Positions 38,669 through 44,131 of a DNA stretch of 64,000 nucleotides are shown piece after piece. The first letter of the stretch is position 1, and each line of letters opens with the position of its first letter. This DNA comes from Naegleria gruberi. Its lineage: Eukaryota. The stretch lies in assembly GCA_000004985.1 (NCBI GenBank), contig GG738919.1; one strand, 5' to 3'. The position numbers were made by a program, and so were the translations under genes. The notes under the pieces were generated by a model that saw only the letters and a list, made by a program, of their open reading frames with translations, had not been told where the DNA came from and ran no database searches.

Positions 38669-40564
38669 ATGAGCAATTTTACCAACCACTCACAAAATAA
38701 TAACTCGTCCGCTTCCTGTACTGCTGTTGGAGGTTCGAACAATAACAACAACAATAGCTCTCAATTTAACAACAACAATAATACAACCGTGAGTGTGATT
38801 GAGGAGAATATTAGTCAATCTACTAGTAATAATCACCCTTCTCAAACAAAAGGACAGCCTCCCCCACGTATGTTGGCTCATTCTAACAGCAATACACAAC
38901 GACATTCCGTCGATTCCTATACACCTCAAGTTATTAGTAATAACATGTCTGATATTTATCAAAGGAGAGTTGGCTCATCAATAACAGGATCAGATTCAAG
39001 CCTCTCCTCAACATCTACATCATCCACTTCTATCATCAAATCACTACAACAATCCTTTACAACCTATTCAATAGTTCTTCAAGATCGCGAAAAGCTTAAA
39101 GGATGGAAGAATGTACTTTTATTTGCCTTTCTTAATATTTATGTATTGTGGGCATCCGTGGCGATACCTAGTCAAGGAAATTATAATTATGGGGATATTG
39201 GATCATGGATTTGGAAGGCAATTAATTTTCCAGTGACCCTTTCACTTGATTTGATCCCTTACGAGGTAGGGATAGCTCTCTCTTCAATATGTATTGCCTT
39301 TTCAATTCTGGGAATTTTAATGTTCCTTATTTCTTCTAGGGCAGTGTACAATTCGAGCAAGTACACAAACATTCTCAAAAAACTGTTTAGAATCTATGGA
39401 ATTATATTTCAGTTCATTGTCTATACAATGATCTTTATAATGAGTGGATTTTTCAATTGTGATGAATCAAAGACTGTAGTTTTGGAGGGTTATGATGAGC
39501 CACAAACAGTGCTGAGGAGATATCCTACCACTCCATGTTCTTCAACAGCTAATATTATTTTGGTGATCATTAATGCTTTGGGAATTTTAGTGCTCTTCAT
39601 TGATGCAGGTATTGTTGGATTGACTGTGACGAATGCTCATCCAAAGAGCTCAACACTCTTCATTACAGATACTTCATACTTTTCTGTAATTTTCAATTGG
39701 GTCTCAATGTTTCAAATCTTGGTTGTATATGTAATACCTCAACAATATTTTTATATTGTTGCCGTTCTGCACATTATTTCATCCATTATTACCATTCCAT
39801 TTCTATTTTATCTTCTTCCATTCTTTAGAAGAATGGAGAATTCTATATATTGTGGAATAATTTGCTCCAAGATTGGCATTAGTATTGGATGCATTGTTTC
39901 CTACTTTGTAAATTCCCAATATTTAACAGATCTAGGTCTTGGTATGTCTGGAATAATCGTGGGTCTTGGTCTGGTGGGTTGTATTATTGGCTTGACCGTT
40001 ATGGAAATTTATACAAGAGTATCATATAATGAAGTGAGAAAGGAGGTTGTGAGAATTCTTTCAGAGTGCGCCTCACAAGCTATTGAACTGTCCAATGATG
40101 AATCTGAATATGTTCACAAACAACATGGAGAAAACTTTTTCAATTTGAAATCGTTATTTGAGAGAGAATCTGTTTCATTGTTGAGATCATTTGAGGAAAG
40201 AAAGAAACTGAGAAACCTTAATTTATTCCTAAAATTCTCCATGAGATCTGGAAATAAGCCCGCCAAGGAGACTTTCTTAATGTCTGACTTGGATTTAGTC
40301 GTTGCATTTATTAGAGGTGTTGGGAATCAAAAGAGTTTCAGTAGTCCAATTCTATTGGTAAATTGTAGTTTGGTGGCATGCCACTTTGTGGTTGGAGAGA
40401 CAAATAATTTGACTCTTGCCTTCTCCTTATTGAAAAAAGCACAAAAACAGAGACCTTCTTTATTAGAAAACTTTATAATCGTAGAGAGAATGAAAGAAAT
40501 TGAATCATCAACTGAAAATTTAGGTAGAGCCAAAAGTAGTAAGTTTCTTTATTCAGATCTGTAA
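38669..40564 (+). CDS. polytopic membrane domain protein; probable N-terminal part of the PAS-adenylate/guanylate cyclase gene
   Basis: 631 aa. The N-terminus has an Asn-rich tract. At least 8 hydrophobic TM helices follow, then a cytosolic tail. The ORF ends 18 nt before the next same-strand ORF. Confidence 0.55.
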   Translation: MSNFTNHSQNNNSSASCTAVGGSNNNNNNSSQFNNNNNTTVSVIEENISQSTSNNHPSQTKGQPPPRMLAHSNSNTQRHSVDSYTPQVISNNMSDIYQRRVGSSITGSDSSLSSTSTSSTSIIKSLQQSFTTYSIVLQDREKLKGWKNVLLFAFLNIYVLWASVAIPSQGNYNYGDIGSWIWKAINFPVTLSLDLIPYEVGIALSSICIAFSILGILMFLISSRAVYNSSKYTNILKKLFRIYGIIFQFIVYTMIFIMSGFFNCDESKTVVLEGYDEPQTVLRRYPTTPCSSTANIILVIINALGILVLFIDAGIVGLTVTNAHPKSSTLFITDTSYFSVIFNWVSMFQILVVYVIPQQYFYIVAVLHIISSIITIPFLFYLLPFFRRMENSIYCGIICSKIGISIGCIVSYFVNSQYLTDLGLGMSGIIVGLGLVGCIIGLTVMEIYTRVSYNEVRKEVVRILSECASQAIELSNDESEYVHKQHGENFFNLKSLFERESVSLLRSFEERKKLRNLNLFLKFSMRSGNKPAKETFLMSDLDLVVAFIRGVGNQKSFSSPILLVNCSLVACHFVVGETNNLTLAFSLLKKAQKQRPSLLENFIIVERMKEIESSTENLGRAKSSKFLYSDL

Positions 40565-40581
40565 AACAAATCTTTTAAGTT

Positions 40582-42177: not shown

Positions 42178-44131
42178 ACTAATAATGCTTAATTTCAATA
42201 GAAATACTGTGTTGACAATGCACGATATTCAGAATGTTCAGCTGTTCATTGGTGAAATTTATATATTTGGAATTTATCCTAATAATTCACATGTAAATCC
42301 GAAGGAATTAATGGAATCCGAAGAGTTACTAGAGTTACACGAAAATTTGATTAATGTTTCTTCTGAATTGTTGGATTTGTGGAATCTTCTTATATTTGGT
42401 GACTACACCAAAGGGCAAACACCTATCCTATTAAGATATGGAAAAGTTGATGACATGATTCAAGGACACGGTTGCTCGCAATTGACCAATTCAACTCTAA
42501 AAACATGTTACGGATTAGATGAATTGGTTAAAGCCTTTGTGCTTAGTTCACATGAGATCAACGAAAGGGTCAATAATAAGGGACCTAATAACTATATTCA
42601 AACATTTGATGATTTGATAGATTTTTATTTCAGGACCAATATTCTCACTTCTAACTTGTTTACATTCTTGGACATTTTTGTTTCCAGCTCATCAGCTAAT
42701 CTTGTGATTTCTATTCTTGTGTTTGTTGCTGCAAGTATTATGATGATGGTGTTGACATTTTTAATACACAACTCAATTGAAAAGACTGAACAGGAAGTCA
42801 ATCAAGTGAGATCATTACTGAATTATGTTCCTGTTGATAATTTGGATGCTAAGGAAGAGCTCCGAACCTATGTTTTGCACAATTCCTTACCAAGCTTGAT
42901 TCATAGAAATCATACGGATTCAAATGATGACAATGTTAGAAATATGTTAAATGCAGCAGTCGATGGAGCTGTAATGTGTAATGATAAGGGAGATATTGAA
43001 ATATTCAACCCAGCTGCTTCTAGAATTCATGGAAGACAAGCAGACGAAGTATTAGGAAGACCTTTCTGGATCCTATTCGACACCAAATATCATGATGAAA
43101 TCAAATCTGTAATGTCACTTATGATTAAAGGCAACCATTTGAATCATGCAGGAGAGACGAAAGAAGTTGAAGGCCTCAGAAAGAACGGCACCAAATTCCC
43201 AGCCATCATTACAATTTCAGGAACAACTTATGATTCCAAGGTGATTTACATTTGCTTTATCAAAGATATCAGCTCTGAAAAGAAGCAAAATGCTCTCCTT
43301 GCAGAAGAGAAGAAGAATAGTGAAAATCTCTTGAAGAATATTCTTCCAAGTGCTGTAGCTCAAAAGCTCAAAGCCGGTGAAACATTCATAGCTGAAAAAT
43401 TCTCTGATGTAACATGCTTCTTCTCTGATATGGTTGGTTTTACCTCTATCAGTAGTAAGATGGGTGCCAATGAATTAGTGGGAATGTTGAACGCAATTGT
43501 GAACGGATTTGATGCCCTCACAGAAAAGTATGATTTGGAAAAGATTAAAACAATTGGTGATGCTTATTTTGCTACAGGTGGTTTGTGGCAAACAAGTGAT
43601 CACCCTGAGAGAGTTCTCATGTTTGCATTGGATACATTCTATGTGATTAGAACGTACAATACAAGTAACATTGCTCAACAATTGAGAAAGATTGACAATT
43701 TAGATGCTCCAGATATTCACAAGGTTATTCCTCAAATAGACATTAGAATTGGTATCAATACTGGTGAGTGTGTTGCAGGTGTTATTGGAACTAAAAAGTT
43801 TGCCTATGATTTATGGGGAGACACCATTAACGTGGCCTCTAGAATGGAATCTACAAGTAAACCAGGCCAAGTGCAAATTTCCAGAAGTACCTTTGAAAGA
43901 GTTCACGATTTACCAAAACTGAAATTTGAAGAAAGATTTGTTGAAGTTAAAGGAAAAGGTAAAATGCAAAGTTATCTTGTGGATCCATCCTGCCATGATT
44001 GTGCAAAACTTAATGAAGAAACCATTAAGGTTTTGATTGATGAAGAAAAGTCCCTACGAAATGAACTCAATCCAAGAGAATCTTTTGATTTAACAGGTGG
44101 AAATGTTGCAGAACCACCAACAACCTTGTAA
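42167..44131 (+). CDS. PAS domain + class III adenylate/guanylate cyclase catalytic domain
   Basis: TM helix, then a PAS-like segment ([44 protein letters not shown]...). The cyclase homology domain follows: [26 protein letters not shown] and [34 protein letters not shown]. Nucleotide specificity cannot be called by eye. Confidence 0.85.
   Translation: [654 protein letters not shown]

Follow-up and report, generated by a model that had tools for sequence, protein, structure and literature searches.

The 64,000-nucleotide (nt) window analysed here, a stretch of DNA from Naegleria gruberi NEG-M, in all likelihood contains at positions 38669-44131 of the + strand a single gene with three exons and two mini-introns, which from its sequence is predicted to encode a receptor-type class III adenylate cyclase of 1,794 amino acids (aa) with 12 transmembrane (TM) segments. 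All features described below lie on the + strand unless stated otherwise. The locus is occupied by three open reading frames (ORFs), namely ORF1 (38669-40564, 631 aa), ORF2 (40582-42177, 531 aa) and ORF3 (42167-44131, 654 aa). Since at the G+C content of the window (about 34%) a stop is expected approximately every 14 codons, three successive frames that each stay open for over 500 codons cannot be attributed to chance. In an initial annotation these ORFs had been read together as one protein of about 1,800 aa, with a gap of 18 nt between the first two and an overlap of 11 nt between the last two. The overlap was recovered, whereas 17 nt lie between the stop of ORF1 and the ATG of ORF2, 18 being the difference of the coordinates. 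When both mini-introns were removed, a coding sequence of 5,385 nt was obtained, which encodes 1,794 aa and contains zero internal stops; the proposed length thus holds for a single protein after splicing and not as the sum of the ORFs. That the three ORFs form one composite protein was supported by their in-frame fusion via two canonical mini-introns, by their match to ordered segments of one family profile and by colinear homologs.

Exon 1 (38669..40538) encodes aa 1-623 and the first base of codon 624, and comprises the low-complexity N-terminus, an 8-TM domain and the beginning of a cytosolic helical domain. It is followed by intron 1 (40539..40579, 41 nt, GTAAGT...TTTAAG), which has the sequence GTAAGTTTCTTTATTCAGATCTGTAAAACAAATCTTTTAAG and harbors the in-frame stop of ORF1. 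Exon 2 (40580..42164, aa 624-1152, both end codons being partial) carries the TPR_TmcB region, TM9, ectoloop 1, TM10, TM11 and the beginning of ectoloop 2. Intron 2 (42165..42201, 37 nt, GTATGT...CAATAG, sequence GTATGTATTTTGAACTAATAATGCTTAATTTCAATAG) contains the stop of ORF2 as well as the spurious ATG of ORF3 at 42167, and exon 3 (42202..44131, aa 1152-1794 and the stop) encodes ectoloop 2, TM12, the PAS domain, the signalling helix and the cyclase domain. Intron sequence accounts for the final 8 codons of ORF1, the final 4 of ORF2 and the initial 12 of ORF3, and the spliced junctions read GAGCCAAAAGTA|TTATGGAAATTA (junction 1) and GGATGATGTAAA|AAATACTGTGTT (junction 2). The frame could also be restored by many alternative GT..AG pairs at the junctions, but the chosen pair alone is the shortest, has GTAAGT/GTATGT donors and retains the residues that align with the homologs. 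As expected for spliceosomal GT-AG introns, both have GT..AG ends, restore the frame and are flanked by exons that are colinear with homologous proteins.

The best homolog, N. lovaniensis C9374_010749 (P0001, 1,799 aa), shares 33% identity over 93% of the query, and the second, an N. gruberi 'predicted protein' (P0009, 1,700 aa) that is annotated in one piece, shares about 34% identity. Both are colinear with the window protein through both junctions. At junction 1 the alignment with P0009 contains no gap and that with P0001 a 3-aa gap, while at junction 2 both alignments are gapless. The N. lovaniensis gene is interrupted by seven introns, which are 52-72 nt long and have GTAAGT/GTATGT-type donors. 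Introns of 9-95 bp are described for Acrasis kona (PMC11589745), which was for this reason considered as the source of the window and discarded in view of exact matches to N. gruberi.

Word-indexed homolog searches gave only two relatives of the non-catalytic part, and the family was recovered by an exhaustive profile search over 1.84 billion protein representatives. In this search the three annotated pieces of the locus matched positions 1-464, 494-993 and 1039-1155 of the family profile; since these segments are consecutive and ordered, the pieces are parts of one protein. The family is small, with 256 proteins at E ≤0.001 and 85 at E ≤1e-30, all of which have only 25-36% identity to the window protein; the latter is one of several dozen receptor-like cyclases of this kind. 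Nearly all long members contain PAS and cyclase domains, and in 26-28 of the 29 full-length members TPR_TmcB (26 of 29), PAS and Guanylate_cyc were found, while other domain families were found in none. One distant member of 1,768 aa is encoded by a single ORF on an ENA contig. Two 'short' members that seemed to have no cyclase were checked: on the contig of the first, ORFs for PAS and cyclase follow downstream, so that it is a piece of a gene split by introns, and the second ends close to the end of its contig. Among the short members that were checked, no convincing family member without a cyclase was identified. The locus is one paralog of an uncharacterised protist family of uniform architecture, as judged from the sequences, and not a one-off. 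The protist origin that had been proposed for this receptor-like PAS-cyclase was confirmed. For Naegleria, at least 81 cyclases (PMC9928731) and 50-80 PAS proteins (PMC10468136) have been counted, and the locus shows part of this repertoire to be a uniform family in which a 12-TM TmcB-type module is joined via PAS to a predicted adenylate cyclase. In the literature, no paper describing a fusion of TmcB, PAS and cyclase or the membrane fold was found.

A hydropathy scan gave 12 TM segments, eight of which lie N-terminally between aa 147 and 449 and four of which follow further downstream, in agreement with the at least 8 TM helices and the helical linker with additional TM helices that had been read from the ORFs. 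The first approximately 145 residues (38669-39100) are of low complexity, poly-Asn and Ser/Thr-rich, contain 10 N-x-S/T sequons and are not conserved in the homologs; the start codon is putative. The 8-TM domain (39104..40078, aa 146-470) was delimited by hydropathy and by an AlphaFold2 model, with TM1-TM8 at approximately aa 146-168, 198-227, 233-259, 293-320, 337-355, 358-382, 388-414 and 420-449. A beta-hairpin loop lies between TM3 and TM4, and a conserved cytosolic motif, PF(F/Y)RRxENS (PFFRRMENS in the window protein), between TM6 and TM7. The model of aa 130-470, built from a 62-sequence family alignment, shows eight long helices with a mean predicted local distance difference test (pLDDT) of 96.5 and a predicted template-modelling score of 0.92. 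When this model was compared by Foldseek with 350,542 PDB chains, no match was better than E 0.29 and a template-modelling score of 0.24, and no adenylate cyclase was among the top matches; sequence searches with aa 130-1396 against the PDB gave no significant match either. The earlier impression that the N-terminal domain is unlike the 6-TM cassettes of metazoan cyclases agrees with this confident 8-TM model and its lack of a significant match. Because its predicted fold is very confident and has no solved relative, the domain is a well-defined target for structure determination and ligand finding.

The 8-TM domain is followed by a cytosolic all-helical domain (40079..41157, aa 471-816, split by intron 1) with the family-conserved motifs LHRxFWKE and KTVLRFYA. 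Within it, aa 623-727 (nt 40535-40890) match TPR_TmcB (Pfam PF25474) with 58.1 bits against a cut-off of 27 (E 1e-15, profile positions 20-124 of 125). A Pfam match to DUF7541 (E 0.008) was below its cut-off and was disregarded. The second membrane module (41158..42781, aa 817-1345, split by intron 2) contains, by hydropathy, TM9 (aa 817-852), TM10 (1034-1063), TM11 (1108-1142) and TM12 (1306-1345), with ectoloop 1 at aa 853-1033, ectoloop 2 at aa 1143-1305 and a short cytosolic loop between TM10 and TM11. Each ectoloop contains exactly two cysteines (C861/C1021 and C1243/C1254), which are conserved in 25-29 of 29 relatives, and the ectoloops, of about 170 aa each, are probably stapled by disulfides. 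Since the TM counts are even, a cytosolic N-terminus would imply that the TmcB-type helical domain, the PAS domain and the cyclase are cytosolic as well, and that aa 853-1033 and 1143-1305 lie outside. This topology is consistent with the Arg/Lys-rich predicted inner loops, such as PFFRRMENS, and with the cysteine pattern of the ectoloops.

A PAS domain (42935..43273, aa 1397-1509), predicted as a sensor in the initial annotation, was confirmed by matches to Pfam PAS_9 (aa 1406-1509, 62.3 bits against a cut-off of 27, E 6e-17) and Pfam PAS (38 bits against 22.6, E 2e-9). Among solved structures, its 13 best matches are without exception heme PAS domains, from DosP/EcDOS and FixL (E 4e-8 to 6e-4), which would be expected if the domain were a FixL/DosP-like heme sensor of O2, NO or CO and the cyclase were regulated by gas. 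However, the heme-ligating proximal histidine (FixL His194/200, DosP His77) is absent, as Ile1452 stands at the aligned position; when the PAS domains of 43 family members were aligned with that of the window protein, Ile, Leu or Val occupied this position in 38 of the 44. The nearby His1449 is not conserved in the family. Since the heme-ligating position is Ile1452 and Ile/Leu/Val in the family, a heme sensor is unsupported and we consider it improbable. Between the PAS domain and the cyclase lies a segment resembling a signalling helix or cyclase transducer (43274..43390, aa 1510-1548), which is the best-conserved stretch of the family (51% of columns at least 75% conserved) and in which family members show weak matches to the C-terminal part of HNOBA.

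The class III nucleotidyl cyclase domain (43391..43981, aa 1549-1745) matches Pfam Guanylate_cyc (PF00211) with a score of 166.1 bits (cut-off 21.9; E 8e-49), the match extending from position 3 to 181 of the 183 in the profile, and every cyclase motif that had been quoted for it was found. Both catalytic domains of mammalian AC9, C1 and C2, could be aligned with it, as could the mycobacterial Cya, which is a homodimer. The domain carries the metal-binding aspartates D1561 (43427-43429) and D1605 (43559-43561), the substrate-binding K1601 (43547-43549, in KIKTIGD) and D1688 (43808-43810, in YDLWGDT), and the transition-state residues N1695 (43829-43831) and R1699 (43841-43843). Of these, D1561, D1605, N1695 and R1699 align with residues of C1/C2 of AC9. 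Across 26 aligned cyclase domains, from 25 family members and the window protein, each of the six residues is conserved in 23-26, the substrate-binding Lys in 25 and the Asp in all 26. The initial annotation had left the choice between adenylate and guanylate cyclase to the substrate residues. In guanylate cyclases this pair is Glu/Cys. Because the pair is Lys1601/Asp1688 and not Glu/Cys, the enzyme is predicted to be an adenylate cyclase, and because one domain holds both the metal-binding and the substrate/transition-state halves, two chains would have to pair, with a symmetric site on either side. By the established rules for class III cyclases an active homodimer is thus predicted. The Pfam family spans both specificities and among protist cyclases there are exceptions to substrate calls made from sequence, so that a guanylate cyclase or a catalytically dead scaffold could be imagined. 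Given the adenylate-type pair and the presence and family-wide conservation of both metal-binding aspartates, the Asn and the Arg, a guanylate cyclase or pseudo-cyclase is very unlikely.

Comparison with a second strain bears on whether the locus is intact. An N. gruberi-like metagenome contig of 3,997 nt (ENA ERZ929261, k127_70039) is about 97% identical over 4 kb; it covers exon 3 and the downstream gene and extends 117 nt upstream of intron 2. Between the strains, 4 of 37 nt are substituted in intron 2 (10.8%), 1 of 117 nt at the end of exon 2 (0.85%), 55 of 1,930 nt in exon 3 (2.85%) and 14 of 202 nt in the downstream spacer (6.9%). The divergence of intron 2 differs from that of the exons (Fisher p = 0.02), its GT and AG are retained in the second strain, and with 10.8% against 2.85% in exon 3 it evolves like noncoding DNA. 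The substitutions in exon 3 are 42 synonymous and 13 nonsynonymous, with 0 indels. The 375-aa neighbouring gene (window 44337-45464) diverges by 0.35% between the strains, as compared to 2.85% in exon 3 of the cyclase.

A decaying pseudogene or an assembly error, in which the frame breaks are real frameshifts or sequencing indels, might be suspected from the subtelomeric position and the large family, a setting in which paralogs frequently decay, and from introns that are unusually short and not common to the N. lovaniensis homolog. In contrast, both breaks match GTAAGT/GTATGT...AG boundaries exactly, and the structure of junction 2 is the same in the independently assembled second strain. Selection on exon 3 is purifying (42 synonymous versus 13 nonsynonymous changes, no indels), which weakens the pseudogene reading, all six catalytic residues are intact, and the long exons are free of further stops or frameshifts. 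We therefore assign little probability to decay or misassembly.

In the public databases the locus is split into three models, all labelled 'predicted protein' in GenBank: EFC37347.1 (D2W0U2, NAEGRDRAFT_74981; 38669-40564, 631 aa), which reads exon 1 through to the stop at 40564, EFC37348.1 (D2W0U3, NAEGRDRAFT_74982; 40666-42177, 503 aa), which starts at the internal Met653 and runs into intron 2, and EFC37349.1 (D2W0U4, NAEGRDRAFT_74983; 42311-44131, 606 aa), which starts at the internal Met1189. The starts at Met653 and Met1189 drop conserved residues, the LHRQFWKE motif lying directly upstream of Met653. Word-indexed protein searches missed these three proteins of the locus itself even though they are in the collection, so that the absence of a close hit does not mean that a gene is unannotated. 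That the annotation is correct and the locus holds three independent genes, two for membrane proteins and the third for a PAS-cyclase that is soluble or has a single TM segment, is extremely unlikely: GenBank, RefSeq and UniProt list three and an ATG is present in each ORF, but the 17-nt gap and the 11-nt overlap, against neighbouring intergenic spacers of 205 and 742 nt, leave no space for untranslated regions or promoters, the annotated starts cut conserved residues and the stretch 42202-42310 differs between strains only synonymously, the pieces are colinear with one-piece homologs, and consensus splice sites at both junctions restore the frame. The composite gene is a correction of the three-way-split public annotation, and D2W0U2, D2W0U3 and D2W0U4 should be merged into one entry of 1,794 aa.

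Several observations weigh against a single receptor-type cyclase gene as described here. The introns of 37 and 41 nt are shorter than all seven introns of the N. lovaniensis homolog and have no position in common with them. The comparison with the second strain spans junction 2 only and does not include junction 1. Both spliced-junction strings gave zero matches in the metagenome contigs of the Joint Genome Institute. A model of aa 98-1261 of P0009, built from a 5-row alignment, had a pLDDT of 48 and showed an all-helical membrane region, the ectoloops included; owing to this low confidence it was used for secondary structure only and not for a fold search. To these points the missing proximal histidine of the PAS domain has to be added.

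If the single-gene structure is correct, the protein would consist, from N- to C-terminus, of a low-complexity region, an 8-TM bundle, a TmcB-type (TPR-like) domain, a 4-TM module with ectoloops, a PAS domain, a signalling helix and the cyclase. A homodimer of two such chains would make cyclic AMP (cAMP) from ATP at two symmetric sites, and its activity would probably depend on how the two catalytic domains are oriented towards each other. This orientation could be relayed through the PAS domain and the signalling helix from the membrane/ectoloop module, from a PAS ligand or from both, by analogy to other proteins in which PAS, coiled coil and cyclase are combined. The membrane module would in this case serve as the 'sensor'. 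It is possible, but should be regarded as tentative, that the TmcB-type membrane module (8-TM domain, TPR-like domain and 4-TM module with stapled ectoloops) represents a previously unrecognised receptor or regulator cassette of class III adenylate cyclases. In that case the Naegleria fusion would act as a 'Rosetta stone', and stand-alone TmcB proteins such as those of Dictyostelium and of Chlamydomonas cilia would bind and control adenylate cyclases. The fusion thereby provides a testable hint on the role of orphan TmcB proteins in Dictyostelium and algae.

Apart from the cyclase locus, a scan of the window for introns with GTAAGT/GTATGT donors by which two long open frames would be joined gave further candidates of 42, 51, 53 and 108 nt; control hexamers in the same scan gave three candidates only, all of 126-150 nt. 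The 51-nt (48822-48872) and 53-nt (49312-49364) GTAAGT..AG candidates lie on the + strand and would fuse the ORFs 47484-48836 and 49418-50743 (zf-MYND) via a middle exon; the numbering of UniProt accessions at 47484-50743 leaves room for one gene only. The GTAAGT..AG candidates of 42 nt (5744-5785) and 108 nt (22478-22585) lie on the - strand and likewise join long open frames. Throughout the N. gruberi genome, mini-introns of about 40 nt may be the reason why gene models are split or truncated; those of 37-53 nt seem to lead repeatedly to split models, which would inflate gene counts and mask domain architectures.

On the - strand, the ORFs 35244-35999 and 30221-35281, the larger of which contains a RhoGEF domain, overlap by 38 nt and are probably one gene, and no clean GT..AG intron was found at their junction (30221-35999). 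The neighbouring ORFs are eukaryotic (RhoGEF, RCC1-BTB, API5 and zf-MYND), and by exact protein matches they belong to N. gruberi, on a scaffold of 216,243 bp; a bacterial reading of the ORFs was rejected on these grounds. From 63610 to 63997 a (TTGGGT)n tandem array of 64.5 copies with 99% matches extends to the end of the window; it is telomere-like with the unit TTTGGG, and a run of N of 2,284 nt (60573-62856) lies just before it. Because of this array at the window end, the cyclase gene is located about 19.5 kb from the chromosome end.

Of the known systems, P0009 and P0001 resemble the window protein most closely. Their domain order is the same from end to end (8 TM, TPR_TmcB helical domain, 4 TM with two ectoloops, PAS, cyclase), their catalytic residues are the same and the colinearity extends over about 93% of the length; they differ in having about 34% identity, other intron positions and annotation as single genes, P0001 being named 'Adenylate and Guanylate cyclase catalytic domain containing protein' in UniProt. 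The relation to the TmcB (tiny macrocysts protein B) family of Dictyostelium discoideum is given by the match to the TPR_TmcB model above its cut-off. To our knowledge TmcB itself has no cyclase domain. As no Dictyostelium-like sequence was found among the best 150 profile matches, the relation is distant. A citing article (PMC12750705) describes TmcB, after Muramoto et al. 2005, as regulating the cAMP pathway when macrocysts form, a role that fits the physical fusion to an adenylate cyclase in Naegleria. A 'TmcB-related' protein is also listed in a table for Chlamydomonas cilia (PMC11244166), and Cre01.g003950 of Chlamydomonas is one example of the TmcB-related family (Pfam PF25474). Literature searches on TmcB and PTHR31600 gave only this table entry and a single citation of the Dictyostelium paper of 2005.

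Among cyclases of solved structure, the mycobacterial Cya/Rv1625c (6-TM; PDB 7yzi, 4p2f, 5o5k; E ~1e-40) likewise has one class III domain with the six catalytic residues, is anchored in the membrane, has a helical transducer ahead of its catalytic domain and forms a homodimer. The best solved matches of the catalytic domain are mammalian AC9, AC8 and AC5 (PDB 7pd4, 8buz, 8sl3; whole-chain E ~1e-52). Mammalian membrane adenylate cyclases have 12 TM segments and make cAMP, as is predicted for the window protein. However, they consist of two 6-TM cassettes with a C1/C2 pseudo-heterodimer, whereas the window protein has 8+4 TM segments, one catalytic domain and a PAS domain; the metazoan arrangement of two 6-TM cassettes, each followed by C1 or C2, is thus not present, and the membrane parts share no fold similarity. 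Soluble guanylate cyclase (H-NOX-PAS-coiled coil-cyclase; PDB 6jt0) differs in being soluble, heterodimeric, GTP-specific (Glu/Cys) and regulated by a heme H-NOX domain, and yet shows the same output order as the window protein, in which the PAS domain is followed by a signalling helix and the cyclase.

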